A stretch of DNA of 64,000 nt from an uncultured virus (IMG/VR IMGVR_UViG_2713897279_000003) (Duplodnaviria; Heunggongvirae; Uroviricota; Caudoviricetes). A program made the translations under genes and the position numbers. The stretch's first letter is position 1, and every line of letters begins with the position of its first letter. The stretch is taken from the IMG/VR virus record IMGVR_UViG_2713897279_000003; one strand, given 5' to 3'. Shown piece after piece: positions 12,405 through 33,919 of the stretch. Below the pieces are notes generated by a model, which did not search any database, was not told where the DNA came from, and was given only the letters and a program-made list of their open reading frames with translations.

Positions 12405-12425
12405 TGTTTCACTCCTTTCTTTCCA

Positions 12426-13883: not shown

Positions 13884-15524
13884 CTATTTCACCTCTACTG
13901 TCTTTATATTTGTAAATGATGCAAGACTTAATTCAGATACCTTACCTGATCCTAATTCTACTGTATTAGAAAACGCAACTTCTTGCTTTGTTTCTCCCGC
14001 ACCTGAAGAAGCAATAATTTTCATACTATCAGATTCACATGTATCTATTACCATGTCATGCATTTTATATTTTTCTGATTTAAGTAATGCATTACTTTTA
14101 AAATTGAGTTTTGCCATATTAATTGCATTGATTCGTTCTAGCTCTTTTAAACGCCCCTCAATTGTTAAGCTATTTGTTTCAATCTTGATGCTATGTAATT
14201 TAGGTGAGTTGCTTACAACTGGCACCGTCTCATATGCTAATTTATCAATTAATAATGTGTCCGTAACTGCATGTAAGTCTAAATAATATGCTAATCGTAA
14301 CTTCATTCCAGATAAAAAAGGCTTCCATGCTTCCTGTCTAACGTTATTAAATGTAGCAATATCCATACCCTTTGATTTTACATCATCTAAATCACTTATA
14401 TCAACAGGATGCCAAGATACACCATTAAATGCTGTCCATGTTGTGCCACTGTCATTAGATGCAATAATCTTGAGGACACTTTCATTTTGTACAGTTCCCG
14501 TTAATGTAAAGGACTTAATAGGCTTCTCAAATATCATATCTGTTTCTTGCATAATTAATTGTCGCTTTGGTATAGCAGTTACATTTACAGACGCACTGTT
14601 AATGTTTGTATCTCTTGTAAGAACTAGTATTTTAATATTATCTGATTCTAATTGATTCCATGCTGATTCAGGAATTACACTTAAATCTGTCATACCATGT
14701 TGCTTAAATTCATCTACTGTAGGCATATTCATTCCTCCTTCAATATTTTTCCATGAGTTATTTTCATATGTTTTTATTATATCACCATCTTGTATCAAGA
14801 GAAGACTAGGTTCTGATTTTAGTGTGATAGTAACAAACCCATTTCCTGCTCGATAGCTATTTTGTCCTAATTGATTTGACCCTAAATTATAACTACTTCC
14901 ACCTCCTCCACCTGAAATAATTGAACCACCACCGCCAAAGTATCCACCTCCCCCGCCACCTCCCCCGCCAGAGTAGCCTATTCCCTTTCCACCTTGACCA
15001 ATTGTTCCAGAAGTAGCAGTAACTGCGGTAGTTGTATTAGAAGCAGCACCACCATATACAGGTCCAGCACCAGCACCACCATACCAGGTAGTATTCCAGG
15101 ATTCACCTGCTTCGCCGTATTTGGTCCCGCCACCTCCTCCTTTTGTTCTTTCGTATCCACCCCCGCCACCTCCAGCAGCTACAATTGTTCGTTTATCTAA
15201 AGTCATTCCACCAATTCTTATATCAGATGATCCACCACCTGAAGCGGCACTTCCACTTGTATTTACAATTGAGCCCCCACCATTCCATCCGCCTGCAACA
15301 CTTCCATTTTCTACTTTTTTTCCTTGTCCACCTACCATTACATAAATAGGTTTGCCACCTTCTAGTGTAAAATCTCCTGAAACCAAAGCGCCTAATCCAC
15401 CTAATCCCCCAGAAGAAGAATTTCCACCTTGTGCGCCTTGAACTTCAATCTTGTATACTCCACTAACAGGCGGAGTGAATGTTTGCTCTGCTCCTGTATA
15501 ATTAAATGTCCATACTTGTGCCAT
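13884..15524 (-). CDS. Fusion of a glycine-rich (ALK/LTK-type polyglycine) domain and the scaffold protein paralogous to 26978..27820
   Basis: FNYTGAEQTF...GAQGG...VAAGGGGGG...GNGFVTIT, followed by MPTVDEFKQHGM. ATG 15524 has an AAGGTGG RBS. Confidence 0.85.
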   Translation of the reverse strand: MAQVWTFNYTGAEQTFTPPVSGVYKIEVQGAQGGNSSSGGLGGLGALVSGDFTLEGGKPIYVMVGGQGKKVENGSVAGGWNGGGSIVNTSGSAASGGGSSDIRIGGMTLDKRTIVAAGGGGGGYERTKGGGGGTKYGEAGESWNTTWYGGAGAGPVYGGAASNTTTAVTATSGTIGQGGKGIGYSGGGGGGGGGYFGGGGSIISGGGGGSSYNLGSNQLGQNSYRAGNGFVTITLKSEPSLLLIQDGDIIKTYENNSWKNIEGGMNMPTVDEFKQHGMTDLSVIPESAWNQLESDNIKILVLTRDTNINSASVNVTAIPKRQLIMQETDMIFEKPIKSFTLTGTVQNESVLKIIASNDSGTTWTAFNGVSWHPVDISDLDDVKSKGMDIATFNNVRQEAWKPFLSGMKLRLAYYLDLHAVTDTLLIDKLAYETVPVVSNSPKLHSIKIETNSLTIEGRLKELERINAINMAKLNFKSNALLKSEKYKMHDMVIDTCESDSMKIIASSGAGETKQEVAFSNTVELGSGKVSELSLASFTNIKTVEVK

Positions 15525-15541
15525 ACTACTACCCACCTTTT

Positions 15542-16816
15542 TTAAATACTTATCCAAGCCCCATCTTGATAAACTCTTATGACTTCTCCATCTTCAACAA
15601 GTAACAATTGTTTTCGCACAGTAAAGGCTGAACTCTCCTGATATGCAGATGTAGCTGTATTATTATCTACTGCTCTGACTCTTATTTTAGCATTTGTAAT
15701 ATTTAATCCATCGGGAAGTTTATATTCTACTGATACATCTGTTGTCTTTGAAGCAATAGGCACCCAAGAAGATTCGTTGTAGAAATCTACATCGTATGTA
15801 ATTGCCTCCCCCTCTGGATCCGTAGATGCATCCCATGATACTGTAATGGTTTCACCTGTTAGGTATACACTATTTGTACTTGCTGTTACTTTTAGATTTG
15901 TTGGCACTGTTGGTGGCATACTTCCTAATTCAACAAGTTGAATTTTAACATATCCATCACCAGATTTTCCCGTTGTTACAGATGTGTTTTCCCCGGATAT
16001 ATAGGAACCGCCGCCGCCACCTCCATATCCATCATTGTAACCGCCGCCACCTCCAGAGTAACCACCGCCACCGCCGCCAGGATAATTACCATTACCACCA
16101 CCGCCGCCAAATCCACCTACACTTGCGTCAGAACGTGCATAGCCACCTAGTCCGCCACTAATAAAAGCTTGCCCACCTTGTACAATGCTATTTTTTCCAT
16201 CCGCTTTCCCCCAGCTTACAACTGTCTGTGTTGCATATTCAACAGATTGTCCGTCACTATAAAAGCCACCGCCTGATCCAGCCGGATAATGTCCAGAAGG
16301 AACCGATTTCCCACCTTGCCCTGATGAACCTCCATATGGAGTCATAGAACCGTAAGATGATGTCCCTGAAGTGGATACGCTCCCATCGCTTCCATAGCCG
16401 CTGGAATTATTATTTGAACCACCGCCACCGCCACCGCCGACAATTAATGGTGTAGTCGATGATAAAACACTCCCTTTGGCTACAAAGCTACCACCACCGC
16501 CACCACCACCTTGTGGATAGCCCATACCTTGCTGTCCTACTAATACTTGAATTACGTCATCTTGTTTTAGTTCAATTTTCCCACTAGCAATTGCACCATA
16601 TCCCCCCCTTGCGGTAAGGCTTGAATTTGATGTTTTCCCACCTTGTGCACCTGCTGCTGTAATCTGATATTTCCCACTCATAGGAACTATCCATTTCATA
16701 ATTGTCCCTGACCGACCAATGTTCGTTGGGTTAAAATGAAGAGTATCATTTAAATTTAGTGTTTCTGGGTAATTAGTAGCACCAGAATACGTGTTATTAA
16801 TAACATGTGTTGCCAT
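15542..16816 (-). CDS. Glycine-rich receptor-binding-like protein with Fn3 domain and C-terminal motif
   Basis: GAQGG, PLIVGGGGGGG, GGFGGGGG, GGGGGGSY, then WDASTDPEG...IRVRAVD. Paralog of 27833..29125. Confidence 0.85.
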   Translation of the reverse strand: MATHVINNTYSGATNYPETLNLNDTLHFNPTNIGRSGTIMKWIVPMSGKYQITAAGAQGGKTSNSSLTARGGYGAIASGKIELKQDDVIQVLVGQQGMGYPQGGGGGGGSFVAKGSVLSSTTPLIVGGGGGGGSNNNSSGYGSDGSVSTSGTSSYGSMTPYGGSSGQGGKSVPSGHYPAGSGGGFYSDGQSVEYATQTVVSWGKADGKNSIVQGGQAFISGGLGGYARSDASVGGFGGGGGNGNYPGGGGGGYSGGGGGYNDGYGGGGGGSYISGENTSVTTGKSGDGYVKIQLVELGSMPPTVPTNLKVTASTNSVYLTGETITVSWDASTDPEGEAITYDVDFYNESSWVPIASKTTDVSVEYKLPDGLNITNAKIRVRAVDNNTATSAYQESSAFTVRKQLLLVEDGEVIRVYQDGAWISI

Positions 16817-16831
16817 GTAGCTTCCTCCTTT

Positions 16832-17953
16832 TTAAATAAACTCCCAGTTTCCATTTTTATAAGACTTATTTATATTTCCATCTTTAATTACATACAATTG
16901 CTTTGCTACTGAGAATATATTACTTAGCACATATTCAGATGCGCCATTTTCACTGTCATTTGCACGAATCCGTAGTTGTGCTTTATCTGTTGTAACTGAT
17001 GGAAGGATACAATCATAATTTGTATCTATAATATTTTTTGCAATACTTATCCATGCTGTACCGTTATAGAAATCCATTTCATATGCAATAGAATTCCCCT
17101 CTGGATCAGTTGATGCAGTCCATTCTAATGGAACAATCTCATTAGACTGATTCATACTCTTAGAGATTGGCTGTTTTGTAAGTGATGGTTCTGTTGGTGG
17201 TTCATTTGCAGAGCCGACAAATGTAATTTCAATTCGCCCATGACCTCTATTATAGCCTGACATAGATGACTGATTACTTCCTTTATTAAAAGAACCACCA
17301 CCACCAGCAGCATAGATAGACGCATTTCCACCACCGCCACCGCCCGTGTATCCACCGCCACCACCGCCAGCAGAGAATCCTGCACCGCCGCCTCCGTATC
17401 CACCATAATCAGTGGTATTATGACCATTGCCCCCAATTCCCCCATTAATAAAAGCATTTCCTGCATATCCATAGCCACTTCTATTTCCATCGCCATAGAA
17501 TCCACTGCCACCCGATCCGCCTGTAGAGCTTCCGCCATTCCCTCCATATCCTTCTTTGGTAAATCCAGCTCCTGAAGAATCTCCTACAGAAGATGTTCCA
17601 GGTCTAGCTTCGGCAATAGTATTTATATATTTATTAAATCCACCACCGCCACCTACTGTTCCATATTGAGAATTTGTATATGCCCCTCCCATTTGTCCAA
17701 TTAATATTTTTATTACTTGCCCTTTTTTTAGATTAAAGTTACCTTGTACTTTTGCCCCTTTTCCACCACTATTTCCACCTTCTGCTCCATAAGCCTCTAT
17801 TTTATACTCTCCATCATTTTGAACAATCCATGATATTATATCTCCTGAGGGTCCAGTTCTAGTATTACTAATCAGCAATACATCCCCACGCTGTAAGCTA
17901 GATGGAAATGTTACTACTGCACTCCCTGGCTGATTTACTATATATCTTGCCAT
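16832..17953 (-). CDS. Glycine-rich receptor-binding-like protein with Fn3 domain
   Basis: Gly-rich domain. The C-terminal ~135 aa are nearly identical to 29140..30357. Confidence 0.85.
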   Translation of the reverse strand: MARYIVNQPGSAVVTFPSSLQRGDVLLISNTRTGPSGDIISWIVQNDGEYKIEAYGAEGGNSGGKGAKVQGNFNLKKGQVIKILIGQMGGAYTNSQYGTVGGGGGFNKYINTIAEARPGTSSVGDSSGAGFTKEGYGGNGGSSTGGSGGSGFYGDGNRSGYGYAGNAFINGGIGGNGHNTTDYGGYGGGGAGFSAGGGGGGYTGGGGGGNASIYAAGGGGSFNKGSNQSSMSGYNRGHGRIEITFVGSANEPPTEPSLTKQPISKSMNQSNEIVPLEWTASTDPEGNSIAYEMDFYNGTAWISIAKNIIDTNYDCILPSVTTDKAQLRIRANDSENGASEYVLSNIFSVAKQLYVIKDGNINKSYKNGNWEFI

Positions 17954-17968
17954 GCTGTTTTCTCCTTT

Positions 17969-18796
17969 CTAAATAGTTTTCCATATCCCATTCTTGTACG
18001 ATTTCACTGTTTCCCCATCTCGTATGAGCAACATCTTATCGTATATAGAAAAGTCTTGGCTTTCTTTATATGGTGATTTATTTCCGACTGTATCTTTGGC
18101 TTGCACTCTTATCTTTGCATTATCTGTATTAATATGACGTGGAATTATAACTGAAATTGATATATCTGATACACTGTTTGCTACTGATAGCCATGCACTG
18201 CCATCATAGATATCAATATCGTAAGTGATGGGAGCCCCGATTTGACTCGTAGAAGCACCCCAATCAAGTTGTATACTTTCACTTGTTAAATATAATGTAT
18301 CTTGTATCCCTGTGATTTCTCCTGGCTGTGTTGGTGGGTCATTATCTAACTTATAATCGACACGACCATTAAATATCCTTCGTTCACTAAATCCACTACT
18401 TAATGTAGAAAAACCTGCTCCATTTATAAGAGTGACATCATCATTAGAAAAGCTAGTGTCTCCATTTGAATATGCCATATTACTGCCAGCTGGAGTAACC
18501 AATGCAAAACCTTTTATCTCTCCTGATTTAATCTTAACTTTCAATTTGGCTGGTATCTCAGTATATACTTTATTGTTATCAATAACATTCGTTGGAACAT
18601 TAGATACTATTTTAACCCATCCACCTGCTCCTTTTGCGTATCCTCCGTCCCGCACATAAATATCAACATAAGCAACTCCTCTAATTTTGAAGTAGGTTGA
18701 AAATCCTGTCACAAAAATATCTTTATTTGCTGTAACAGAAAACATAACTCCACTATTTCCATTTCCACCTTTATTAATAGTTTTAATATATGGCAT
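17969..18796 (-). CDS. Variable beta-rich N-terminal domain plus Fn3 and C-terminal motif
   Basis: ATG 18796 follows AGGAGG. The C-terminal half is shared with 30373..31347 and the N-terminal half is unrelated. Confidence 0.8.
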   Translation of the reverse strand: MPYIKTINKGGNGNSGVMFSVTANKDIFVTGFSTYFKIRGVAYVDIYVRDGGYAKGAGGWVKIVSNVPTNVIDNNKVYTEIPAKLKVKIKSGEIKGFALVTPAGSNMAYSNGDTSFSNDDVTLINGAGFSTLSSGFSERRIFNGRVDYKLDNDPPTQPGEITGIQDTLYLTSESIQLDWGASTSQIGAPITYDIDIYDGSAWLSVANSVSDISISVIIPRHINTDNAKIRVQAKDTVGNKSPYKESQDFSIYDKMLLIRDGETVKSYKNGIWKTI

Positions 18797-18810
18797 ATTG
18801 TTTATCCTCC

Positions 18811-20790
18811 TTACTGAATGGCTTTCCACACTCCATCTTTATATGACTTTACTATGTTATTATCTTGCACTAATAAAAGACGAGTTGCGATTGTAAACAC
18901 ATTTCCCAATGTGTAATCTGATTTTCCTCCTTTATTGTCTTTTGCTCTTACCCGAAACTGTGCTTTGTCTGTATCTAAACTTGGAAGAATAGTAGCATAA
19001 GAATTTACTGTTACACTAGATTCCACTGAAACCCAATCGGAGCCATTATATAGTTCCACCTCATATGAGATAGAATCTCCTTCTTTGTCAGTTGATACTG
19101 TCCATTCTAGTTGTACTGATTCCCCTGAGAGATTCATACTGTTTACGGTCGGCTGTTTTACAAATAGCTCTGGCTTAGTTGGTGGCTCATTTCCTTCACT
19201 ATATCCAATTACAGTGAAAGGGACACCATACTCTGGGTAATCTCCATCTATTGAGCTAGGAACTGTATTGTTTACATTATAGAAATACTTATGCATAGTT
19301 GTAGCACCATATTTATGCTCTGCAATTCGAGTAAAGCCAACTCGTGGGTTTTCATAATTATTTCTAACTTGCTGTAATAATACGACCTCTTCTTGTGGAC
19401 TTGGGATAGGAGTAGAAAACCCAATTGTCTTTTCAATACCACCAGTAAGAAACTTACCATTTCGATATACATTGATGGAACCAAATCCTAATCCTGTTGG
19501 TGATCTTGGCGTATCAACTGATACCGTTGAATCAATATCTTCTTTCGTTGCAATCTTATAAAAAAGAGATGATCCCATTGAACCATTACTTGTCGCTTCT
19601 GCAACTTTAGTATAACCAGATGGACTTATAATTGCAGAGTTCGAAATAGACCCTGTTGATTGTGCCATGACAACAATTAAATCCCCTACCTGGATGCCAC
19701 GTGGAACAGGCCAAGAAGTTATATAATTTATTCCACTATAGCTAGTAGCAGGAGCTGTAGTGCCAATGTGCTTTATCTTATTCTCCCTTTTAATATTTTC
19801 ATCTAAGATAATAAACTTTGTTCGTGAGTCCCAGCTATTTCTATATATTGTTACATTTGTATTTACAGGAACTATTGATGAACACATTTTTCCGTAACGT
19901 TCTGTAAGAGGAAGTAATGCACTGCTTCCGTCATTAAGAGAACTAGCTGCAATAACAGCAAACCTACTATTAACCCTAGTTGTAGTAACAGGAGGAAAAG
20001 AAGATCCACTTTTATCAACCATGCCATAGTTTACAACTTTAGCATCTGCAACAGACATCAATGACATCTCAATCCAACTTAATTGGGCTGTTGCGATACG
20101 TATCGGATACTCTTCCGGTTCATACTTTGTTGCTACTTTATACAACATAGTAGAAAATTCACTAGTATTTGTTTTTATAAATCCATCATTAGAATCAATA
20201 ATGGCATCATTATAATGATTGACATATAAAACTAGGACATCTCCTTCTTGTGTTCCTGTAGGTTTGGCGATTGTCTTAATACCTTTTGCAGAAGCAGTTG
20301 TACTCCTTACTCTTATTCCTTTAGGCTCATCTAATGTGTAATCAAACTTCCATTCTGGAAACTGAAGTGCGCTTCTCCCATACTTTCGACTAGCTGATTT
20401 AATTTCTAGATGCTCGTTTGATGCTCCATTAAATGGATCTCTGCTTCCGTGTGTACCATTATCATAATTAGAAGAGTCTTGTGTTATTGTCGTAAGACTT
20501 AGCCTATATGTTTTTCCTGAAAGCATTTTCACACCCTGAAAATTTTTCCATATATTAGGACTAATACTTACACGATTGTTATCTGCTGTTTCTTCTGTAC
20601 TTGAAATATCATAAACAATTTGTCCTGTTGATTCGTCGGCAATTCGAAGCCGATATACAATTCCTCCATATCCTCCGTTATACGTTTGAACATACACCTT
20701 ATTCATGATGATGTTTGTTTTAGGTGTTACCAATACATCGTAAGCAGCACCCCAGTTACCTTCTGATCTTGGTACTAATAATGAAGGCAT
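18811..20790 (-). CDS. Multidomain appendage protein (three beta modules, Fn3, C-terminal motif)
   Basis: ATG 20790 follows AAGGAG. Two P.G.Q.GD.[LI]V...YK[VI]AT modules. Ends LLLVQDNNIVKSYKDGVWKAIQ. Confidence 0.8.
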   Translation of the reverse strand: MPSLLVPRSEGNWGAAYDVLVTPKTNIIMNKVYVQTYNGGYGGIVYRLRIADESTGQIVYDISSTEETADNNRVSISPNIWKNFQGVKMLSGKTYRLSLTTITQDSSNYDNGTHGSRDPFNGASNEHLEIKSASRKYGRSALQFPEWKFDYTLDEPKGIRVRSTTASAKGIKTIAKPTGTQEGDVLVLYVNHYNDAIIDSNDGFIKTNTSEFSTMLYKVATKYEPEEYPIRIATAQLSWIEMSLMSVADAKVVNYGMVDKSGSSFPPVTTTRVNSRFAVIAASSLNDGSSALLPLTERYGKMCSSIVPVNTNVTIYRNSWDSRTKFIILDENIKRENKIKHIGTTAPATSYSGINYITSWPVPRGIQVGDLIVVMAQSTGSISNSAIISPSGYTKVAEATSNGSMGSSLFYKIATKEDIDSTVSVDTPRSPTGLGFGSINVYRNGKFLTGGIEKTIGFSTPIPSPQEEVVLLQQVRNNYENPRVGFTRIAEHKYGATTMHKYFYNVNNTVPSSIDGDYPEYGVPFTVIGYSEGNEPPTKPELFVKQPTVNSMNLSGESVQLEWTVSTDKEGDSISYEVELYNGSDWVSVESSVTVNSYATILPSLDTDKAQFRVRAKDNKGGKSDYTLGNVFTIATRLLLVQDNNIVKSYKDGVWKAIQ

Positions 20791-20808
20791 ATGCACTTCT
20801 CCTTTCAT

Positions 20809-20842
20809 AAAGAAAGGCGACCATTCAAAGAATGAATCGCCT
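20809..20842 (-). terminator. Intra-operon hairpin/weak terminator
   Basis: AGGCGATTCATTC-TTT-GAATGGTCGCCT-TTCTTT, identical to 32646..32679. Confidence 0.6.
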
Positions 20843-22046
20843 ATATTACTTCTATTTTTGTAATGGACTTATACTTTGTTCGGTCAATTGGAATCTCAAA
20901 TAACTTCCCGTCTGTATACGTTTCATTTAGAATGCCATCTATTTTATGAATGGCATTTACTTTTACGTCCGAACCAACTTGTGCTAAGAACTCATTCATC
21001 ACGAGCTTTGATTCTGGACTTGCTTGGTCAAACTCAAATGTCTTCTTATCTCCAACTTGTGCGCCACCGTTAAGTACTGCACGAAACTTCAAGAATCTTT
21101 TTTGCGGAAGAGTAGTTGGATTAAAGAATGCATAAGGACTAAATGTAATGCCATCATCAGAAGCACTTACTTCTACTCTTACAGAAGCAGGTGGTTTCCC
21201 ATATGTGCTGCCCAATGTTTGAACTGGCGTTGGAGCAGGTACCAATTGGTTGCCAATGAATTTTAATTTTGTTGGCTCATCTAATGTCGTATAAAAAACA
21301 GTAGAAAGAGTTCCACTATAAGGTCTATTATCCCAGTAATCTAATACATTACTTGCAATCAATCCAGGTGTATTCATGTTTGTTTCAACATACAAGTCAT
21401 TTGACTGTGTTAAGAATATAGTTCCATATCCCGATTTCTTAATAGACTTTACATTGCTTGCGAGTCTTGTAAAAGATCCGGCTGGTGATGTTGATCCGTA
21501 TAATTCACCAGCCTGATTCAGATACCTAAATCCCCTATAGTTACTATTTGCACCAGACGCTGCAACATCTTGCACCGCATCTACTGAATAGAAAGTTGCA
21601 CTAGGAGCTGTACCAAAATTTGCATTTGCAAAATATCCTTTTCCATCCAGTGACTTATAGGCAACAGTATAGTTTTCTAATACAACATAATCTACATTTG
21701 TTGCTACTTGTCTTTTGTAAGATGTACTGCCAATGTTAGCCAACCAAAGTGTGTTGTCATTCTTTACGTAAGCTAACATTTGATCTTCAGCTGAATCGGC
21801 TTGCTTTACATCTGTATCCATAAGCACTAATGTGCTTCCTCGCCAAACATATAAGCTACCACTCATTGAAATGTATCCGTCACAAGCGTTATCATAATCC
21901 TCATTACTAATAACAGCTTGCTTTACATTTGTTGCTACTTTTGTCCAACTACTATTTGAAAAGCGGTGTGTAGTGCTGTCACCTGTGCTTCCAGTTATTG
22001 CATACATATCATTGTTTACATCTACGTATCCAAATACACATGACAT
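20841..22046 (-). CDS. RCC1/BLIP-II-like beta-propeller repeat protein with conserved C-terminal module
   Basis: Repeats VATNVKQA, YVKNDNTLW, LASNVKSI, FLTQSNDLY, IASNVLDY. C-terminal SDDGITFSPY...LPQKRFLKFRA. Paralog of 32678..33904. Confidence 0.75.
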   Translation of the reverse strand: MSCVFGYVDVNNDMYAITGSTGDSTTHRFSNSSWTKVATNVKQAVISNEDYDNACDGYISMSGSLYVWRGSTLVLMDTDVKQADSAEDQMLAYVKNDNTLWLANIGSTSYKRQVATNVDYVVLENYTVAYKSLDGKGYFANANFGTAPSATFYSVDAVQDVAASGANSNYRGFRYLNQAGELYGSTSPAGSFTRLASNVKSIKKSGYGTIFLTQSNDLYVETNMNTPGLIASNVLDYWDNRPYSGTLSTVFYTTLDEPTKLKFIGNQLVPAPTPVQTLGSTYGKPPASVRVEVSASDDGITFSPYAFFNPTTLPQKRFLKFRAVLNGGAQVGDKKTFEFDQASPESKLVMNEFLAQVGSDVKVNAIHKIDGILNETYTDGKLFEIPIDRTKYKSITKIEVI

Positions 22047-22061
22047 AATATCTCTCCTTTC

Positions 22062-22399
22062 TTATCCGAATTTAACAGTAATGCCTGTTACTTTTTGCAT
22101 GCCGCTTCCTAAGTCAACGCCTTCTGATTCCCATGTACCAGAACCTACAAATGCTTGTGGTCCAATTTGTCGAAGCTGAATATTTCCTTCTTTAAATTCC
22201 GCATCATCAAACATGCCCTTGGTTAAATCAACATCATAAAGCTCTTTAACTTGTAAGTTAGATATTTGAGCTTCTATCCAATCTAACCTCTCATCAACAG
22301 AGTCAAATCGACCTTCTGCTCCCTTTCCTACTATCATTTCATTAAGCTGTTTAATTTCCTGAGCCACTTACTTGCCTTACTGAAAGAAATAATCTCCAT
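22062..22399 (-). pseudogene. Frameshifted paralog of 34977..35318 (or sequencing error)
   Basis: ATG 22399 with GGAGGTG RBS gives MEIISFSKAS. AGT-AA-GTG then lacks one A relative to the paralog (AGT AAA GTC), and this frame stops at TGA 22334-22336. The remainder (22062..22367) is intact in another frame. Confidence 0.75.
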
Positions 22400-22410
22400 T
22401 GTATCACCTC

Positions 22411-23187: not shown

Positions 23188-23229
23188 AATCGTGCCTCCT
23201 CTTTTATTTTTACTAAATTTTTATGGATT

Positions 23230-23364
23230 TCACATGAAATCCAGTTGTTTAAAGATAAATCAAAATGATCTTTATATATTGATAAATTCTTCATTTATCC
23301 CAAATTTTAGATTCTCTTCTCTCCTTACATCATCTCATACAAATGAAATACGTTCTCTATCTAT
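23230..23364 (-). pseudogene. Decayed remnant of the 8309..8755 paralog
   Basis: ATA GAT AGA GAA CGT ATT TCA TTT GTA TGA GAT GAT GTA versus ATG GCT AGA GAA CGT ATT TCA TTT GTA TCA GAT GAT GTA. The start codon is lost, there is a nonsense codon at 23335-23337 and the RBS is eroded. The 3' limit is approximate. Confidence 0.85.
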
Positions 23365-23383
23365 ATTAAATCTTTCTTTTGTT

Positions 23384-24463: not shown

Positions 24464-24478
24464 TTCGCACCGTCCTTT

Positions 24479-25897
24479 CTATAACCATGAATATGAAATT
24501 GCATGAAGCTCTTTTCCATTTTTTAGAACGATCTTAACAAGCAATTCTTTGCCCTCTGGAAGTTTATCTAAATTAACAAGCTTATCTTTTTCAATCCTCA
24601 TCCATGATTCATTATTACGAGATACATAATATTCTAGGTTGTCTTCTGCATTCTCTTCAGTAACTGATGATAATAAAAACAAGGTAGGAATAGTCTCTAC
24701 AGACTCAACAGTTGTAATCAGTATAGCTGCCTGTGTCTTGTCCTTTGGCGTTAATTTATGGTTTTGTTGATCATGAAAAATATTCTTTGAATTTATTAAA
24801 TCAATGCCAGAGCTATCACCAAAATCATCAATAATCATATCTTTCATGTTATAGCGCTTTTTATCTAAAAGAGAATTTACTCTTAAATTATGCTTATTGA
24901 GATTTATATGGATACTCGTTTCTAAGTCTGATACACGGTTAGGCGATGGGCGATTCTGATAAGAGATTGCCACATTATTAAACTTATACGCTTCATCAAG
25001 AACAGTGACTTGTATTTGTAAGTTCTTTGAAAACTTACTTACTATTTCAAAACTATTTCCTACATCAATAAAATCATCTGTTGTTTTCACAGATACTTTT
25101 ACTTTATCTCTTGGCAAATCAACTGTTTCATCATGGGTTAGATAAAACTCTAGCTCATCAATGTTAACCGGATAACTACCTTCTTCTTGATATCCATTTG
25201 TTTCTGAAACATTAAGTCCATATTGCTTGTATGGCGTGTTGTTTTGAAAGAAAAATGTTCGCTCTTCATATTCATTCCAGTTTACTTGGTCAGTTTGTTT
25301 ATCAAGAACAACCCAATTCCCATCATCTGTCAAGCCTAAAAATGTCCAATTCTTAGGTGACTGATTAATATATTTAACTCTGCCTCTAGCTCTTATTTTG
25401 TAGCTGTTTACAACTTTTGCTGTTGGCCAAAAATATGTTAATATTTGAGGAAGAGCTGCACCGTCTGCACTTTGCCACCCTAATCCATCATTTTGTTGAC
25501 CATCAAACGCTTTAGAAGGAGGGTATATTTCAGAACCCCCAGCATTTCTATATGAACTCGCATTAGCTGCTCCTTCCTTGGCTAAGTTTTCACCAGATAT
25601 TGTACGTACACCTTTTACTTTTATTAATTTCAATTCAAGTGCGTCTTCTTCTAAATGAATAATATTAGAAGTCCAAACATCATTAGTGATGCTACCTTCT
25701 TGAGTTGAAACAACCTTTACTTTATCAATTAATCCTTGTCGTTTCTTTTCTAATGCATCTAGACGAGCTTTAACAGTAGCAAAAGTTCCTTTTACATCTT
25801 TATCTCCATTTTTGTAGTCACCTACACCTAGGCGCTTATTCAGTGAATCTAGATTCTTCCTTCCTTGCATTGCTTTAGAATAACTTACGATATCCAT
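24479..25897 (-). CDS. Appendage scaffold protein with one F5/8 type C-like insert
   Basis: ENLAKEGAANASS...PSKAFDG...SPKNWTFLG...IDELEFY. Scaffold segments are shared with 10413..12404. Confidence 0.85.
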   Translation of the reverse strand: MDIVSYSKAMQGRKNLDSLNKRLGVGDYKNGDKDVKGTFATVKARLDALEKKRQGLIDKVKVVSTQEGSITNDVWTSNIIHLEEDALELKLIKVKGVRTISGENLAKEGAANASSYRNAGGSEIYPPSKAFDGQQNDGLGWQSADGAALPQILTYFWPTAKVVNSYKIRARGRVKYINQSPKNWTFLGLTDDGNWVVLDKQTDQVNWNEYEERTFFFQNNTPYKQYGLNVSETNGYQEEGSYPVNIDELEFYLTHDETVDLPRDKVKVSVKTTDDFIDVGNSFEIVSKFSKNLQIQVTVLDEAYKFNNVAISYQNRPSPNRVSDLETSIHINLNKHNLRVNSLLDKKRYNMKDMIIDDFGDSSGIDLINSKNIFHDQQNHKLTPKDKTQAAILITTVESVETIPTLFLLSSVTEENAEDNLEYYVSRNNESWMRIEKDKLVNLDKLPEGKELLVKIVLKNGKELHAISYSWL

Positions 25898-25918
25898 TGT
25901 TTCACTCCTTTCTTTCCA

Positions 25919-26977
25919 TTAAGCCCATGCATAAGCGATTGCTGTTAAAGTTGCTGAATCTGTTGGCAAATTAATGCGGATTTTAAGTTGCTTACCAGAT
26001 TGTTTTGAGACATCTATTACATCCCCTGATTGAAAGGCATTCCAAGTACTTCCGTTATCTAAAGAATACTGAAATGTACATTCTTGATGATCTGCTGTTA
26101 TGACAAGTGTTTTGCGATATGCTGGTAACTCTTCTGTATCCGTTTCTATCATACCAGTTCCACGATATAATTTATCTTCTGAATTATAGAGATAATGCTG
26201 TGAAATGCTTGCTGTAAATTGTTTTTCCGTTTCTGTATAAACTAATATCTTAGAATTACTCGGGAGTGCTTTCCATTGTTCCTCTGTAATGTTATTTAAT
26301 GAGGACATACCATGATCTTTAAACATTTCGTATGTGACTGGTGCCGTGCCTACATCTTCCCATGTGCTATTAATTTTTTTGATTATATTTTCAGATTGAA
26401 TGAGAAACATTTGGATATTCGGTATTTTCACGTCATTATATAATCCGACTGGATCATTTGATACATCTGCGAATCTAGAATCAATATTATTAATCTTGAA
26501 CCCTGTTATTCCAAGTTCAGTGAATCTAACTTCGCCACTTCCTGACCCAATACTAACTCCCCCGTTATCTTTAAAGTAATAGCGAATACCATTACAAAAT
26601 ATCCAACAGTCAATAGGACCATAAATCATTCTAACTTTGTCCTCATTGTTGTTTTCTACTCGTTTCCATTGATTTGTATCTGTATCACGGTATTCGACAT
26701 AGGTAATAAAATCCTCCTTCCCAAGACCCTCATCAGGCAATCCATATGGTTTAATTTTTGTAATAAGAACCGGAAAATCAAATTCAATTCCCATCCAAGC
26801 AGAATTGGTTCCTTTCTCAAACCAAAAAGAACGATCAGAATTACTTTTGTTTCCATCATTTAATGAAGCTGAATCATAACTATTACTTGTACTCCAAGGT
26901 GCTGATGATTTTGCTACGCCTATTGTTTGCAAATTATCATCATATATTTCCTTGTCATTAAAATCAATACGTGACAT
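25919..26977 (-). CDS. Appendage protein: galactose-binding/discoidin-like N-domain plus conserved C-terminal scaffold module
   Basis: SLNDGNKS...AWMGIEFDFPVLITKI. C-terminus ...YSLDNGSTW...AIAYAWA as in 12426..13883. Confidence 0.8.
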   Translation of the reverse strand: MSRIDFNDKEIYDDNLQTIGVAKSSAPWSTSNSYDSASLNDGNKSNSDRSFWFEKGTNSAWMGIEFDFPVLITKIKPYGLPDEGLGKEDFITYVEYRDTDTNQWKRVENNNEDKVRMIYGPIDCWIFCNGIRYYFKDNGGVSIGSGSGEVRFTELGITGFKINNIDSRFADVSNDPVGLYNDVKIPNIQMFLIQSENIIKKINSTWEDVGTAPVTYEMFKDHGMSSLNNITEEQWKALPSNSKILVYTETEKQFTASISQHYLYNSEDKLYRGTGMIETDTEELPAYRKTLVITADHQECTFQYSLDNGSTWNAFQSGDVIDVSKQSGKQLKIRINLPTDSATLTAIAYAWA

Positions 26978-27820
26978 TTATTTCACCTCTACTTTCTTTA
27001 TATTTGTTATCGATGCAAGATTTAATTCAGATACCTTACCTGAACCTAAATCCACAGTATTCGAGAAAGATAATTCTTGTTTTAATTCCCCTGCACCTGA
27101 AGAAGCAATAATTTTCATACTATCAGATTCACATGTATCTATTACCATATCATGCATTTTATATTTTTCTGATTTAAGTAATGCATTACTTTTAAAGTTG
27201 AGTTTCGCCATATTAATTGCATTGATTCGCTCTAGCTCTTTTAAACGTCCCTCAATCGTTAAGCTGTTTGTTTCAATCTTGATACTATGTAATTTAGGTG
27301 AGTTACTTACAACTGGCACTGTCTCATATGCTAATTTATCAATTAATAGCGTATCTGTAACTGCATGTAAGTCTAAATAATATGTTAATCGTAATTTCAT
27401 TCCAGATAAAAAAGGCTTCCATACTTCCTGTGTAACGCCATTAAATGTAGCAATATCCATACCCTTTGACTTTACATCATCTAAATCACTTATATCAACA
27501 GGATGCCAAGATACACCATTAAATGCTTTCCATGTTGTACCACTGTCATTAGATGCAATTATCTTGAGGACACTTTCATTTTGTACAGTTCCCATTAATG
27601 TAAAGGACTTAATAGGCTTCTCAAATATCATATCTGTTTCTTGCATAATTAATTGTCGCTTTGGTATAGCAGTTACATTTACAGACGCACTATTAATGCT
27701 TGTATCTTTTGTGAGAACTAGTATTTTAATATTATCTGATTCTAATTGATTCCATGCTGATTCAGGAATTACACTCAAATCTGTCATACCATGTTGCTTA
27801 AATTCATCTACTGTGGGCAT
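26978..27820 (-). CDS. Appendage scaffold ('socket') protein with coiled-coil segment
   Basis: Near-identical to the C-terminal 280 aa of 13884..15524. GGAGGA spacing favours ATG 27820 over 27826. Confidence 0.85.
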   Translation of the reverse strand: MPTVDEFKQHGMTDLSVIPESAWNQLESDNIKILVLTKDTSINSASVNVTAIPKRQLIMQETDMIFEKPIKSFTLMGTVQNESVLKIIASNDSGTTWKAFNGVSWHPVDISDLDDVKSKGMDIATFNGVTQEVWKPFLSGMKLRLTYYLDLHAVTDTLLIDKLAYETVPVVSNSPKLHSIKIETNSLTIEGRLKELERINAINMAKLNFKSNALLKSEKYKMHDMVIDTCESDSMKIIASSGAGELKQELSFSNTVDLGSGKVSELNLASITNIKKVEVK

Positions 27821-27832
27821 ATTCATTCCTCC

Positions 27833-29125
27833 CTATATGGTTTGCCATGTGTTATTTTTATATGTTTTTATTATATCACCATCTTGAATAAGTAATAATT
27901 GTTTTCGTACAGTAAAGACTGCGCTCTCTTGATATGCAGATGCAGCTGTTTTATCATCTACTGCTCTTACTCTTATTTTAGCATTTGTAATATTTAATCC
28001 ATCGGGAAGCTTATATTCAACTGATACATCTGTTGTCTTTGAAGCAATAGGCATCCAAGAAGAGCCGTTGTAGAAATCTACATCGTATATAATTGCATCC
28101 CCCTCTGGATCCGTAGATGCATCCCACGATACTGTAATGGTTTCACCTGTTAGGTATACACTATTTGTGCTTGCGGTTACCTTTAGGTTTGTTGGCACTG
28201 TTGGCGGAAGACTAGCAAGCTGAGTCAATTGAATCGTAACATAACCATCTCCTGCATTATATCCTTTCATTGTAAATGCTGTAACTCTATCCGTATTTGC
28301 AGCTGAGCCACCGCCACCGCCGCCATATGAATTTTCACGTCCAGCAGCACCACCGGAATAACCACCACCACCTCCGCCGCCAAAATAACCATTACCAGCA
28401 CCGCCACCAAATCCACCTATTGCACCCTGACTTTGCGCAGATGAGTATGATAATCCTCCTTCTCCTCCTTTACGGAAAGCTCGCCCGCCTTGAGTATAGT
28501 TTCTTGAGTTCAATGCTGTTTCCCAACTTACTATAATATTATCTGTACCATACGAAACAGATTCTCCATCTCCATAGAATCCACCACCACCACCGCCAGG
28601 ACAGGAAGCAGCAGGTGCAGCTCTTCCTCCATTTCCATTAGTTCCACCAACTGGTGCAGAAGAATTTGGACCAAGTGTTCCTGATAATCCATTTGATGCA
28701 GTTGCTCCATTTCCAGTTCCACCAGAACCAGAACCAGCGCCACCACCACCACCGGCAACAATAATCATCTCAGATGAAGATAACAGTGACCCGATTGCAG
28801 TAAAGCTACCGCCACCGCCGCCACCACCATATGTATAACCCTTTCCTTGTTGGCCAACTAAAATTTGAACAACTTCATCTTTTTTCAAGGCTACTGTTCC
28901 AGTCATGATTATACCTTGTCCACCAATCCCTCTTCCATCTCCACTTCCTCCTTTTGCTCCTGCTACCGTAAAATTATATTTCCCTGAGATCGGAACAACC
29001 CATTTCATAATTGTTCCTGAACGACCAGTAGATGTTGGATTAAATTGTAGAATATCATTTAATGCCAATGACTCTGGATACTTTGTAACACCTGAATATG
29101 CACTATTAACCTGATGCGTTACCAT
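27833..29125 (-). CDS. Glycine-rich receptor-binding-like protein with Fn3 domain
   Basis: GAKGG, IIVAGGGGG, GGFGGGAG, GDGYVTI. The Fn3 domain is nearly identical to that of 15542..16816. Confidence 0.85.
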   Translation of the reverse strand: MVTHQVNSAYSGVTKYPESLALNDILQFNPTSTGRSGTIMKWVVPISGKYNFTVAGAKGGSGDGRGIGGQGIIMTGTVALKKDEVVQILVGQQGKGYTYGGGGGGGSFTAIGSLLSSSEMIIVAGGGGGAGSGSGGTGNGATASNGLSGTLGPNSSAPVGGTNGNGGRAAPAASCPGGGGGGFYGDGESVSYGTDNIIVSWETALNSRNYTQGGRAFRKGGEGGLSYSSAQSQGAIGGFGGGAGNGYFGGGGGGGYSGGAAGRENSYGGGGGGSAANTDRVTAFTMKGYNAGDGYVTIQLTQLASLPPTVPTNLKVTASTNSVYLTGETITVSWDASTDPEGDAIIYDVDFYNGSSWMPIASKTTDVSVEYKLPDGLNITNAKIRVRAVDDKTAASAYQESAVFTVRKQLLLIQDGDIIKTYKNNTWQTI

Positions 29126-29139
29126 ATAGTTTCCTCCCT

Positions 29140-30357
29140 TTAAATAGATTCCCAGTTTCCATCTTTATAAGTCTTTCTTATCTCTCCATCTTTAATTACA
29201 TATAACTGTTTTGCTACTGTAAATACATTACTCAACGAATATTCAGATGCTCCATTTTCACTGTCAGTTGCACGTACTCGTAGTTGTGCTTTATCTGTTG
29301 CAACAGATGGAATAATGCAATCATAATTTGTATCTATAATATTTTTTGCAATACTTGCCCATGTAGAGCCATTATAGAAATCTATTTCATATGCAATAGA
29401 ATTCCCCTCTGGATCAGTTGATGCAGTCCATTCTAATGGAACAATCTCATTAGACAGATTCATACTTTTAGAGATTGGCTGTTTTGTAAGTGATGGTTCT
29501 GTTGGTGGTTCATTTGCAGAGCCGACAAATGTAATTTCAATTCTTCCGTGACCACTATTTACACCTGGAGCATTATCCTGTTTACTTCCTGCGTTATAAG
29601 AGCCACCACCTCCCGCTGGAAAAGCCGCTGCATTTCCGCCACCAGTACCACCAGTATAACCACCTCCCCCACCGCCAGCAGAGAAACCACCGCCTCCTCC
29701 ACCGCCAAATCCACCTACAGTTATACCTTTTCCTTCAGTCCAAGATATTCCGCCTTGTCCACCAGAAACAAAGGAGTATCCATTCTTTCCTCCATATGCT
29801 GTTGAACTTGTGCCATCACTATAATATCCTCCTGCTCCCCCGGCACCAGTACCACCACCTGCATTTCCTCCTTGACCTTCTCCCCTTGATGATGGCCCGC
29901 TAGGAACAACACTGGCTAATTTTGTTATTTCACCTTGATACCCTGGCTTTGGATTGTTTGCACTATATTGAGTAACCCCTCCTCCTCCACCAGCAATTAA
30001 AAATGGAGTAGTTGTACCCAAAGAAATAAATGTGCCTCCTCCACCGCCGCCTTGATAGTAGTTATAAGTGTCTAATTCATAAGAGCCCATTTGGCCTATT
30101 AACAACCTAAATACTTGATCTTTTTTTAGAGTGAATTCGCCTTTCATTCTTGCTCCTTTTCCTCCGTACTGCAACTCACCTCCTTGTGCGCCCCACGCTT
30201 CCATTACATATATGCCATCATATGGGACTTTCCACTGAAGGATAGTTCCATTCTTACCAGTACTAGTATTATTAAAAATCATTTTATCTCCACGCTTTAA
30301 GTTAGTTGGAAATGCTGATGTTGCACTACCTGGTTGATTTATTGTATAAGTTGCCAT
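29140..30357 (-). CDS. Glycine-rich receptor-binding-like protein with Fn3 domain
   Basis: WGAQGG, GGKGARMKGEF, FLIAGGGGG, GGGGSYN, GHGRIEIT. Confidence 0.85.
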   Translation of the reverse strand: MATYTINQPGSATSAFPTNLKRGDKMIFNNTSTGKNGTILQWKVPYDGIYVMEAWGAQGGELQYGGKGARMKGEFTLKKDQVFRLLIGQMGSYELDTYNYYQGGGGGGTFISLGTTTPFLIAGGGGGVTQYSANNPKPGYQGEITKLASVVPSGPSSRGEGQGGNAGGGTGAGGAGGYYSDGTSSTAYGGKNGYSFVSGGQGGISWTEGKGITVGGFGGGGGGGFSAGGGGGGYTGGTGGGNAAAFPAGGGGSYNAGSKQDNAPGVNSGHGRIEITFVGSANEPPTEPSLTKQPISKSMNLSNEIVPLEWTASTDPEGNSIAYEIDFYNGSTWASIAKNIIDTNYDCIIPSVATDKAQLRVRATDSENGASEYSLSNVFTVAKQLYVIKDGEIRKTYKDGNWESI

Positions 30358-30372
30358 TGCATCTTCTCCTTT

Positions 30373-31347
30373 CTAAATAATTTTCCATATCCCATTCTTG
30401 TACGATTTCACTGTTTCCCCATCTCGTATGAGCAACATCTTATCGTATATAGAAAAGTCTTGGCTTTCTTTATAAGGTGATTTATTTCCTGCTGTATCTT
30501 TCGCTTGCACTCTTATCTTTGCATTAGCCGTATTTATATTACTTGGAACTACAATCGGAATTGATATATCTGATACGTTAGTTGCTACAGGCACCCATGA
30601 ACTTCCGTTGTACACATCAATATCATAAGTAATGGAATCTCCCTCTTGGTCAGCAGAAGCTCCCCAACTTAATTTTATACTTTCACCAGCTACATATAAT
30701 GACTCTTGAATTCCTGTAATATCACCAGGCTGTGTTGGCGGTTGATTCATCGTGACGATGGCAATACTAATACATTTGTCTGCGTTTGATACTGATGAGA
30801 TACCTGTTGTCCCTCCACCTGACATCCACTTATGTCCAGCAGAAGAAGAGGTAAAACTAACTATTCTAGTATTCCATGTCATTGACATTCCTGATGGAAT
30901 GGACATTGTTGATGACGAATGAGTAGTAAAAAATGATACATATAAAAAATCCATATCAAGCGAAATAGACACTGAACTTCCAGCATCCGGTCTACTATAA
31001 GATGTTTTAATTCCTAATTTTGTAGGCTGTCCACTATCAGTTGAAAAGTGTCCGATATTTACAGCAAACTCATCCTTAAAGTCAAAATCAAATACATACG
31101 ATGCAGGTTCATTACTAGTAGCTACCTTATACAAGACGGCATGAGAGTTGTATTTTACTCCTTTGGTATCTTCTAGTTTCTCCCAACCAGATGGATACCT
31201 AGTGATGGTTTCCCTACTACTCGTATGATTATCTGCTATAATATGTGCAACTAACAAGTCTCCTTCTAAGATTATCCCTGACGGACGAGAAACCGTTAAA
31301 GAATTTGTTAATGCACCTGCTGATGATTTTCCCTTAAAAATTATCAT
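30373..31347 (-). CDS. Beta-module protein with Fn3 and C-terminal motif
   Basis: PSGIILEGDLLVAHI...PSGWEKL...LYKVATSNEPASY module. C-terminus is shared with 17969..18796. Confidence 0.8.
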   Translation of the reverse strand: MIIFKGKSSAGALTNSLTVSRPSGIILEGDLLVAHIIADNHTSSRETITRYPSGWEKLEDTKGVKYNSHAVLYKVATSNEPASYVFDFDFKDEFAVNIGHFSTDSGQPTKLGIKTSYSRPDAGSSVSISLDMDFLYVSFFTTHSSSTMSIPSGMSMTWNTRIVSFTSSSAGHKWMSGGGTTGISSVSNADKCISIAIVTMNQPPTQPGDITGIQESLYVAGESIKLSWGASADQEGDSITYDIDVYNGSSWVPVATNVSDISIPIVVPSNINTANAKIRVQAKDTAGNKSPYKESQDFSIYDKMLLIRDGETVKSYKNGIWKII

Positions 31348-31374
31348 AATATTTATCCCCTTAATAAAATGTTT

Positions 31375-32628
31375 TTAAATAGATTTCCATACTCCATCTT
31401 TAAATGACTTTACTATGTTGTTATCTTGAATTAGAAATAACTTTTGTCTTGTTCTGAAAATAGCACTATACGAGTAATCGGAATATGCTCCTTTATCATC
31501 TTTCGCCCTTATCCTAAATTGAGCCACATCTGTATCTTTGTTTGTAATATTGAACCTTCTACTCGTGACCTTTATATCCTTTTCAAGAGAATACCAGTTT
31601 GAGCCATCTACAGTAAATTCCATTTCATATGAGATAGCATCGCCTTCTGGATCAGTGGAAGCATCCCAATTAATCTCAATAGAATCTCCATTTAAGCAGA
31701 GGCTGTTCTCTACAATTCCTAATACATTACCTGGTTTTGTTGGTGGTTGACTTGTAGGCGATAGCAATGTAATCTCTATTCTTCCGTGACCATTATTTAC
31801 ATCCCCACTATTATTTTGATTAGCCCCTATATTGTATGAGCCGCCACCTCCACCTCCATCTTCATAACCACCACCACCACCAGAATATCCGCCACCGCCG
31901 CCACCACGATGACCACCAGCACCACCACCACCAAATCCTCCGCTTATATTATTCCCTTGTCCTCCAGTTCCTCCATATCCACCATTTAAATAAGATTTAC
32001 CACCAGAACTAGAGCTTGCAGATGCGTTGCTGCAGTTGTTACCACCGTTTGTGTAAAATCCACCGCCGCCTGCACCATAACTACAAGATGATCCAGTTCC
32101 GCCATTTGTTGTTCTAGTACCAGAAGAACCTAAAGTTCCAGCACCGCCACCGCCACCATCAATACCACCTCGACCTGCTTGTGAATGGCCAAATGAACCA
32201 GTGTCCCCATTAATTGATGTGACGCCTCCAGAAGCTCTATTTCGACAATGACCCCCGCCACCGCCAGCAACAATTAATGGTATATTATTTCTTAAAACAA
32301 ATGTTCCCCCTCCGCCACCGCCAGAGTCGTTTGAACTACTTCCATCCTTATAGTTTTCACCCATTTGTCCAACTAATATCTTTATAACCTCATCTTTTTC
32401 TAAGACAAAATCCCCTTGCATTCTAGCGCCTTTTCCTGCATATGCTCCTCCGCCTTTTGCCCCCCATGCTTGCATGCGATATGAACCAGAATAAGGAACC
32501 TTCCAAGTTATAATTGTGCCACTATATCCTGTGTTTGTATTATTGATGACGATTATGTCTCCACCTTGCAGGCTAGATGGAAATGAAACCATTGCACTCC
32601 CTGAATTATTTGCTATATAAGTTGCCAT
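31375..32628 (-). CDS. Glycine-rich receptor-binding-like protein with Fn3 domain
   Basis: ATG 32628 follows GAGGAG. PLIVAGGGGG, GGFGGGGAGG. Ends LIQDNNIVKSFKDGVWKSI. Confidence 0.85.
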   Translation of the reverse strand: MATYIANNSGSAMVSFPSSLQGGDIIVINNTNTGYSGTIITWKVPYSGSYRMQAWGAKGGGAYAGKGARMQGDFVLEKDEVIKILVGQMGENYKDGSSSNDSGGGGGGTFVLRNNIPLIVAGGGGGHCRNRASGGVTSINGDTGSFGHSQAGRGGIDGGGGGAGTLGSSGTRTTNGGTGSSCSYGAGGGGFYTNGGNNCSNASASSSSGGKSYLNGGYGGTGGQGNNISGGFGGGGAGGHRGGGGGGYSGGGGGYEDGGGGGGSYNIGANQNNSGDVNNGHGRIEITLLSPTSQPPTKPGNVLGIVENSLCLNGDSIEINWDASTDPEGDAISYEMEFTVDGSNWYSLEKDIKVTSRRFNITNKDTDVAQFRIRAKDDKGAYSDYSYSAIFRTRQKLFLIQDNNIVKSFKDGVWKSI

Positions 32629-32645
32629 AATAACTCTCCTCTCAT

Positions 32646-33904: not shown

Positions 33905-33919
33905 AGTATTTCTCCTTTC

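Follow-up and report, generated by a model that had tools for sequence, protein, structure and literature searches.

A C-terminal tag on phage appendage proteins and its possible docking onto a split fibre domain

In chaperone-usher pili and TasA fibres, an incomplete beta-sheet domain is completed by strands of another polypeptide, a process known as donor-strand complementation. The hallmarks of these systems are a pilin or TasA fold that lacks one strand, an N-terminal donor strand and a dedicated chaperone or usher. Among phage adhesins, the N-terminal part of gp38 binds the tip of gp37, and the gp38-type layout places a fibre-attachment domain at the N terminus, ahead of a polyglycine-II sandwich. 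Branched RBP systems make use of short conserved N-terminal segments that dock onto dedicated branching domains (T4 gp10-like).

The excerpts of the literature considered here describe the gp38-type adhesins of T4-superfamily phages as separate small glycine-rich proteins that are held non-covalently on the fibre and set specificity (PMC3157838, PMC12892980). In the branched systems of Klebsiella, CBA120 and G7C-type phages, several RBPs are placed on one shared anchor protein, again according to an excerpt (PMC13579863). For phage 0305phi8-36, the portion of the source used here proposes that small repeated paralogue domains serve to attach a variety of other domains to the virion, and describes the BtI1/BwK1 relatives as lacking paralogue families a to c (PMC2147016).

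The window analyzed here, a stretch of 64,000 nucleotides from an uncultured virus (IMG/VR IMGVR_UViG_2713897279_000003), is a myovirus-like, Bacillus thuringiensis-type phage element from the B. cereus group. Its proteins match PHROG families for the sheath (phrog_16991, E 0), the hub and one baseplate wedge family, as well as several 'virion structural protein' families, and a 2141-aa protein corresponds to phrog_20474. The gene order of the window is repeated in three viral contigs, and homologues are located on contigs of 206-219 kb. A megablast search of the region against phage records, from which close ones may be missing, gave no match. The fibre genes are arranged in two tandem blocks (A and B). 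A small gene in block B is frameshifted.

Tag-bearing plug proteins

Eight genes, all on the minus strand, end in the pattern hhh.D...K.Y....W..I, as an earlier note on this DNA had claimed. We refer to their products as plugs and to the terminal motif as the tag. In block A, plug A1 (31375..32628) consists of a glycine-rich head, an Fn3/Ig-like stalk and a tag at 31378..31440, and its start is likely the MATYIANN at 32628. Plug A2 (30373..31347) has a head without a glycine-rich domain, an Fn3/Ig-like stalk and a tag at 30376..30438. Plug A3 (29140..30357) has an ALK_LTK_GRD head, a stalk and a tag at 29143..29205. Plug A4 (27833..29125), the cognate of the socket described below, has a glycine-rich head, a stalk and a tag at 27836..27898. 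In block B, plug B1 (18811..20808) combines a 540-aa head without a glycine-rich domain, a stalk and a tag at 18817..18879, after which there is a single extra Q. Plugs B2 (17969..18829, for which the ATG at 18796 is the likely start) and B3 (16832..17953) have tags at 17972..18034 and 16835..16897, respectively. Plug B4 (15542..16816) has an ALK_LTK_GRD head, a stalk and a tag at 15545..15607.

A six-frame scan with the regular expression returned 13 rows, corresponding to 11 distinct true sites (8 terminal and 3 internal) plus repeats and junk; set aside were a site listed twice and a row from a junk frame in which the match reads across a stop codon. On 50 shuffles the expression gave a mean of 0.84 matches and a maximum of 3. 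We also used a profile constructed from 37 outside homologues and zero window sequences. When searched against 444 window ORFs, this profile finds six of the eight termini at E <= 2.1e-4 (A1, E 3.7e-5; A2, 1.4e-6; A4, 5.2e-7; B1, 2.1e-4; B2, 6.3e-6; B4, 1.3e-4). The A3 terminus was recovered at E 0.039, where the best off-target match among the same ORFs has E 0.035, and the B3 terminus, identified by the regular expression, was missed by the profile (E 4.8).

The ALK/LTK glycine-rich domain (PF12810, gathering cut-off 24.5 bits) scores above the cut-off in A3 (28.0 bits), B4 (29.5 bits) and the fusion protein 13884 (99.6 bits). Plug A4 scores 16.4 bits, under the cut-off, and is matched by PDB ALK chains at E 2.7e-5 to 2.5e-4. 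No PF12810 match at E <= 0.01 was identified for A1 and B3, yet both align with the other glycine-rich heads. The stalks had been labeled Fn3. Against Fibronectin type III (PF00041), three stalks score 19.2, 13.1 and 16.8 bits, below the gathering cut-off of 25 bits, and 18811 has no match. Thus, support for Fn3 proper is weak, and Fn3/Ig-like is the better name. PHROG Hoc-like and Ig-like matches also occur. Between the blocks, heads are swapped and stalk and tag are retained, the types of both being specific to position. In PHROGs, neither the plug family (phrog_22713) nor the fusion family (phrog_5811) carries a function or a virion annotation.

The intact domain, the socket and the one-codon junction

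The tag consists of the three strands with which a widespread ~190-aa domain opens. Three minus-strand proteins of the window contain the tag internally, joined in one chain to the remainder of the domain, which agrees with the earlier note. The first (12426..13883) has a DUF4082-like head and the motif from 12914 (FLIESDG...), and the second (25919..26977) has an N-terminal head, the motif from 26407 (FLIQSEN...) and then the socket part. The third is a natural fusion (13884..15557) in which an ALK_LTK_GRD head without a stalk is followed by the tag (14742..14804), the linker EGGMNM and the socket protein. All three encode the full domain pattern, hhLI.DG..IK......W..VG contiguous with P.T..MF...GM.DLS, then a strand and a beta-sandwich containing S.D.G.TW. 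The 26978 protein has the whole of this pattern minus the motif, and the eight plugs have the motif only.

The domain family comprises 549 matches at E <= 1e-3. The motif lies inside the alignment for 112 of the best 150 family representatives (of the 549 matches in all), and motif and socket part are also contiguous in other genera. We found no Pfam match to the domain region in a scan of 23 proteins of the region, no solved structure for the domain by sequence or profile, and no match at E <= 0.001 in a Foldseek search against the PDB. A wide structural search (VIA) matched the sandwich alone (residues 81-206, best Z 5.8). Only distant matches were returned by tblastn with the fusion, P0009 and P0003 as queries, run against phage records among which 0305phi8-36 was not seen.

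The socket protein (26978..27826, minus strand) is made up of an N-terminal half-domain (~27671..27820), an Asp-box beta-sandwich (~27296..27673) and a C-terminal helix module (26981..27295) that is common to other fibre proteins. A strong Shine-Dalgarno (SD) site precedes the socket start and favors the ATG at 27820, which was the start proposed earlier for a protein beginning MNMPTVDEFKQHGM...KILV. There is no separate socket gene in block B; the socket there is the fused 13884 protein.

Plug A4 and the socket meet at 27818..27835 (minus strand), where TAG (27835..27833), GGAGGA and ATG AAT ATG are in frame with both flanking genes. The counterpart in the fusion reads GAA GGAGGA ATG AAT ATG. 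A single codon distinguishes the split from the fused form: the window has TAG-GGAGGA-ATGAATATG, TAA occupies this position in L010 and G066, four fused copies have GAA, and P0182 has a Q. The stop is real, as four studies each contributed a run (X2 to X5) with contigs identical across the junction; these runs also hold second copies with TAA or GAA. The identical stop-SD-ATG layout occurs at the end of all other plug genes. We identified 18 GGAGG-N5-9-ATG sites on the coding strand, and the sole one that is internal and in frame lies inside the fusion (ATG at 14726), where it may act as an internal start.

Naked sockets of 273-281 aa that begin at the identical residue account for 8 of the 18 near-length matches. 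Their identity ranges from 96% down to 61%, plus two at 32-33%. Six further near-length matches have an F5/8C head without the meander formed by the tag strands. Judging from the models, naked and F5/8C-headed sockets may be stable without it. In the half-domain of split copies, the ratios of synonymous to nonsynonymous codon differences are 3:0, 4:0 and 7:0, indicating purifying selection. Plug genes outnumber socket genes by four or five to one, and the glycine-rich fusion falls into a single cluster when sequences are grouped at 95% identity. The nearest relative in the collection searched (G001) has nine tag-ending genes and sockets that are all fused. Of the family's genomes, 104 were scored in a search with P0180, which identified just G001 and G066, and no locus for the distant naked sockets P0009 and P0185 was found in viral or metagenome contigs. 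P0008 and P0119 were considered as N-terminal sockets and rejected as probable fragments, given that their clusters contain longer members. Re-classification of the 150 family matches by HMM and regular expression was noisy, mislabeling P0003 and variants without the W; three N-terminal socket cases and the P0003 sequence were kept.

The AF2 model of the intact domain has a pLDDT of 93, with tag strands at residues 6-11, 14-19 and 22-25 and the strand IKILVL at 62-67. In the model of the socket alone, IKILVL is coil and residues 21-50 have a pLDDT of 75-80, vs 90-93 when the domain is intact; the half-domain region still has a pLDDT of 75-86. The secondary-structure strings of the models suggest that the meander pairs with IKILVL. 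Three observations support the earlier proposal of a split domain: the contiguity in the family, the dependence of the predicted IKILVL strand on the motif and the one-codon polymorphism at a real junction.

Explanations for the tag and the split

The tag is homologous to the start of the domain, a single codon separates split from fused forms, naked sockets are long-lived and the model loses a strand without the tag. Together these make docking in trans plausible, from sequence and models, and the presence on eight appendage proteins of a tag that a neighbouring fibre protein's domain lacks at its start suggests that various binding heads snap onto one fibre. The best explanation, for which we see about an even chance, is that the meander of a plug completes the half-domain of the socket in trans and so fixes heads to the fibre. 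Both blocks would then encode one multi-component tail appendage, in which variable N-terminal binding heads (glycine-rich ALK/LTK-type and others) are carried on a constant Fn3/Ig-like stalk. The stalk ends in the three-strand beta-meander, and the remainder of the small domain (two short helices and the strand IKILVL) opens the fibre protein 26978. Plugs would bind this protein physically, with one socket serving all plugs by strand complementation, and plugs and socket would be present in the virion. Fused genes such as 13884 would make the equivalent contact in cis, and the ribosome-binding site embedded in the fusion probably also yields a free socket for other plugs. Docking in G001, which has fused sockets only, needs this putative internal start or another partner. 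The fuller proposal is more tentative, falling a little short of an even chance: natural split-domain docking in which four to five heads per block share one fibre to give mosaic tips, and the retained stop-SD-ATG junction acts as a single-codon evolutionary switch between covalent and non-covalent attachment.

Alternatively, the tag may be functional with a partner other than the socket, capping its own stalk or binding an assembly factor or some other protein of the fibre or baseplate, and the half-domain may work without the meander. We consider this rather unlikely, although it accommodates the common and conserved naked and F5/8C-headed sockets and the lack of a free socket gene in G001, and the socket-alone model is of moderate confidence. 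Position-specific stalk-and-tag types also fit such a partner, as they are unneeded if all tags bind one site; shared ancestry could explain them. It is harder to reconcile with the homology of the tag to the piece that adjoins the socket in cis in most relatives, with stop codons that in every plug gene fall exactly at the boundary between strand 3 and the linker, and with the loss of the IKILVL strand when the tag is removed from the model.

The tag DNA of 27833 is the same as that of the fusion from CAAGATGGTGAT onward and differs upstream, a pattern suggestive of a crossover within strand 1, and the blocks exchange heads. The tag could be a functionless relic at the place where duplication or recombination units end, its shared coding sequence being mainly a crossover point for head exchange. 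This seems improbable to us: tags that diverge widely in both DNA and protein keep the W (18/18 sequences), the D (at least 90%) and the strand/turn pattern, which points to the peptide, rather than the DNA, as the target of selection, and every plug gene comes with an SD and a start codon of its own. A split that is simply a defect (a nonsense mutation acquired by a decaying element or a stop codon that is read through, so that the fused protein alone matters) would suit two in-frame ORFs with a single stop between them and the frameshifted small gene of block B, but is highly improbable given stops that are both TAG and TAA in several elements and in four studies, naked sockets kept at such low identity, purifying selection on the half-domain of split copies and the strong SD before the socket start.

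Docking of the tag in trans, if it takes place, would let a phage mount many different heads on a single fibre by compact and portable means, with no need for DNA inversion or retroelements. It would then also provide a natural example of a gene split within a domain and rescued by fold complementation. In nature, split and fused forms occur side by side. The domain merits description either way, as its relatives in Firmicutes phage-like elements number in the hundreds and neither Pfam nor the PDB has an entry for it.

Comparison with described systems

The arrangement had been thought undescribed, and our literature search agrees: strand complementation was not found linked to tail fibers, and a search pairing it with bacteriophage and baseplate returned unrelated reviews only. 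The proposed docking resembles donor-strand systems at the level of mechanism only, in that an unfinished beta-sheet domain would be completed by a second polypeptide. The proposed donor here is a three-strand meander at the C terminus of proteins from another family, and the acceptor is a small alpha/beta half-domain rather than an Ig-like pilin, with no polymer implied. The Pfam scan of the 23 region proteins identified no chaperone or usher families, and pilin- or TasA-type structural matches appear only as Foldseek rows at E > 0.1.

Phage 0305phi8-36 probably belongs to the same or a related lineage, given the sheath, hub and baseplate PHROG matches and the 206-219 kb contigs, and the idea of repeated small domains as virion anchors is common to both; the portion of that paper used here mentions neither a tag nor a split domain (PMC2147016).

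Like the gp38-type adhesins, as these are described in the source excerpts, several heads of this locus are glycine-rich, matching Pfam ALK_LTK_GRD; none of the PHROG matches of the plug and fibre proteins is named adhesin. Compared by description, the proposed anchor differs from that of gp38 in being C-terminal and a fragment of the acceptor's own domain, and each block offers four to five adhesin genes as alternatives. The branched multi-RBP systems, as far as the excerpt describes them, likewise have several binding proteins with short conserved docking segments, for which one anchor is proposed here. No gp10-like branching family is present among the Pfam and PHROG matches of the region, and split-domain completion and a natural toggle between split and fused forms are absent from that description of the branched systems. 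The tag is a real feature of these genes, and is a variation on multi-adhesin fibre systems.

Genomic setting of the plug and socket genes

The window carries its long ORFs exclusively on the minus strand. By PHROG matches, the genes that precede the plug and socket region encode a tail sheath (55006..57927), baseplate wedge-like proteins (36174..37457) and, at 2141 aa, a protein with peptidase- and endolysin-like parts. The region is made up of two tandem blocks with identical gene order, block A (23384..36106) and block B (8775..23187). Of the relatives compared, the nearest is contig 2 of genome G001, a plasmid of 145 kb from a Bacillus thuringiensis strain; others are genome G066 and IMG/VR contig L010, and homologues are carried by B. 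cereus group contigs of 130 to 219 kb. Remoter viral contigs share the gene order and encode long cis forms only; no tag-ending genes were found in them.

Three neighbouring paralogues of 255–294 aa (52346..54934) each match the N-terminal part of phrog_9206, annotated as a major head protein, yet they are flanked by the sheath gene on one side and the long tail genes on the other. The 597-aa ORF at 5528..7321 has its match to phrog_21059 (virion structural protein) confined to residues 233 onward, and its initial stretch overlaps the 210-aa gene upstream (7077..7709). Translation probably begins far downstream, not at the listed TTG. Against the block A paralogue (34977..35318) and the G001 orthologue, the small gene of block B (22062..22399) shows a frameshift: an ATG at 22399 with a good Shine-Dalgarno (SD) sequence meets a stop after 21 codons, and the ORF resumes at a GTG at 22367. 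A single base is apparently missing close to AAG-TGG.

Stalks, tags and the domain opened by the motif

Reading of the ORFs bore out the earlier note's claim that eight genes terminate in the motif hhh.D...[KR].[YF]....W..I (31375, 30373, 29140 and 27833 in block A; 18811, 17969, 16832 and 15542 in block B), and that in three proteins (25919, 12426 and the 13884 fusion) it is contiguous with socket sequence. A regular-expression scan of the window returned 11 true sites and one spurious row, versus 0.84 expected from shuffles. When 18 tag-ending proteins of the window, G001 and L010 are aligned, a conserved C-terminal unit of ~125 residues emerges, made up of the Fn3/Ig-like stalk and the tag; the tag tryptophan is invariant and the aspartate occurs in at least 90%. 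The stalks score under the Pfam fn3 cut-off. The heads N-terminal to this unit are mutually unrelated, or distantly related at most. Those of 13884, 15542 and 29140 match Pfam ALK_LTK_GRD, and that of 27833 falls under the cut-off. Stalk and tag behave as the invariant, virion-facing portion of a set of exchangeable adhesins would.

Stalk-and-tag types follow gene position (plugs 1 and 2) across the two blocks, despite differing heads. The first plug of block A, with a glycine-rich head, and that of block B, with a 540-aa head of another kind, have only the last 125 residues in common; the second plugs share only about the last 175.

When 1.84 billion representatives were searched with residues 247–452 of the fusion (P0001), 549 matched at E ≤ 1e-3. 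Among the best 150, the alignment included the motif (start at or before query position 12) in 112 and began at positions 13–40 in 37; one was partial. The tag and socket pieces are contiguous in other genera of the class too (e.g., FLIQDGMDIEAYVSSTWTTIGSAPATQDMFDQNGMTDLS). A profile built from 37 outside sequences alone recognised six of the eight plug termini at E ≤ 2.1e-4 and 29140 at 0.039, and missed that of 16832. No Pfam model matches the domain, and sequence and profile searches found no solved relative. The modules preceding it in family members are varied and of carbohydrate-binding type (F5/8C, laminin G, SPRY, CE2_N, RCC1), consistent with variable binding parts mounted on a constant part that serves attachment.

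The intact domain, modelled from a 40-sequence alignment (pLDDT 93), is predicted to begin with the motif as three strands (residues 6–11, 14–19 and 22–25), followed by two short helices, a strand at 62–67 (IKILVL) and a beta-sandwich (81–206) whose likeness to reelin subrepeat B and CBM-type sandwiches reaches only Z ≤ 5.8. When the socket is modelled alone the helices are kept, IKILVL loses its strand state, and pLDDT drops to 75–80 over residues 21–50. That IKILVL pairs with the three-strand meander of the motif is deduced from this difference between models, not from coordinates.

A helix-plus-KY.M.DM..D module (BLASTP E 5.6e-9 to 4.1e-5; all minus strand) is common to the C-terminal part of the socket (26981..27295), the middle of 10413 (11271..11430) and 24479 (24827..25003), and the N-terminal part of 8775 (10134..10307) and 23384 (24200..24382). 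The module may form a shared coiled-coil shaft, to which different chains perhaps contribute.

The split and fused junctions

In block A, plug 27833 and socket 26978 are in frame across ...TGG CAA ACC ATA TAG GGA GGA ATG AAT ATG CCC, and the 13884 fusion reads ...ATT GAA GGA GGA ATG AAT ATG CCT. The toggle codon is TAA in L010 and one G066 copy, GAA in both G001 copies, the other G066 copy and block B, and a glutamine codon in P0182. This last, a fused glycine-rich/socket protein of a B. thuringiensis plasmid, ends early in unrelated residues after ~380 aa and is therefore probably frameshifted. Because the stop-SD-ATG layout likewise ends every other plug gene, and the fusion linker exceeds the family consensus W..VG..P.T..MF by about two residues, the fused gene resembles a gene junction from which the stop has been lost. 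The coding strand holds 18 GGAGG-N5-9-ATG sites: 11 at or near annotated starts, one at the start of the frameshifted small gene, five internal and out of frame, and one internal and in frame, inside the fusion.

The stop region of the window recurs unchanged in contigs from four sequencing runs of four studies, with zero differences in X2, X3 and X4 and, in X5, zero at the stop itself. A second copy in the same runs carries TAA (X2, X4) or GAA (X3, X5). Over the first 51 socket codons, three split copies differ by 3, 4 and 7 synonymous and zero nonsynonymous changes, and over the sandwich by synonymous:nonsynonymous counts of 14:14, 18:7 and 10:7 (the pairs are not independent in either case).

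Naked sockets of 273–281 aa make up 8 of 18 near-length matches at E ≤ 1e-20 (96, 94, 76, 65, 62, 61, 33 and 32% identity) and share one starting residue, M(A)(L)PT..(E/Q)F, in seven whole sequences and the start of P0002. Six matches of 416–426 aa carry an F5/8C head, which in the five inspected leads directly into the socket with the meander absent. Among 13 longer matches (E ≤ 1e-40), the glycine-rich domain occurs in one cluster only (546 aa, 95% identity). These comparisons thus mark the naked socket as the older and commoner state within the orthologue group, with the glycine-rich fusion of recent origin.

Proposed docking in trans and comparison with known systems

The tag is the piece absent from the neighbouring fibre protein, the socket, and the simplest link would be that a plug tag completes the socket half-domain in trans. 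From sequences and models, we consider such docking an evenly balanced proposition. Counting against it, tags fall into types specific to gene position, the sockets of G001 are all fused, so that docking there would need either a different partner or initiation at the internal start, and the socket may do without a meander altogether.

A literature search found nothing linking 'strand complementation' to 'tail fiber', and strand complementation with bacteriophage and baseplate returned general reviews only. The nearest literature concerns gp38-type adhesins (PMC3157838, PMC12892980), glycine-rich fibre domains and branched receptor-binding proteins (PMC13579863); small virion-anchor domains are proposed in the 0305phi8-36 comparative paper (PMC2147016). 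The plug and socket arrangement is best filed among multi-adhesin fibre systems, as a variant new to them.
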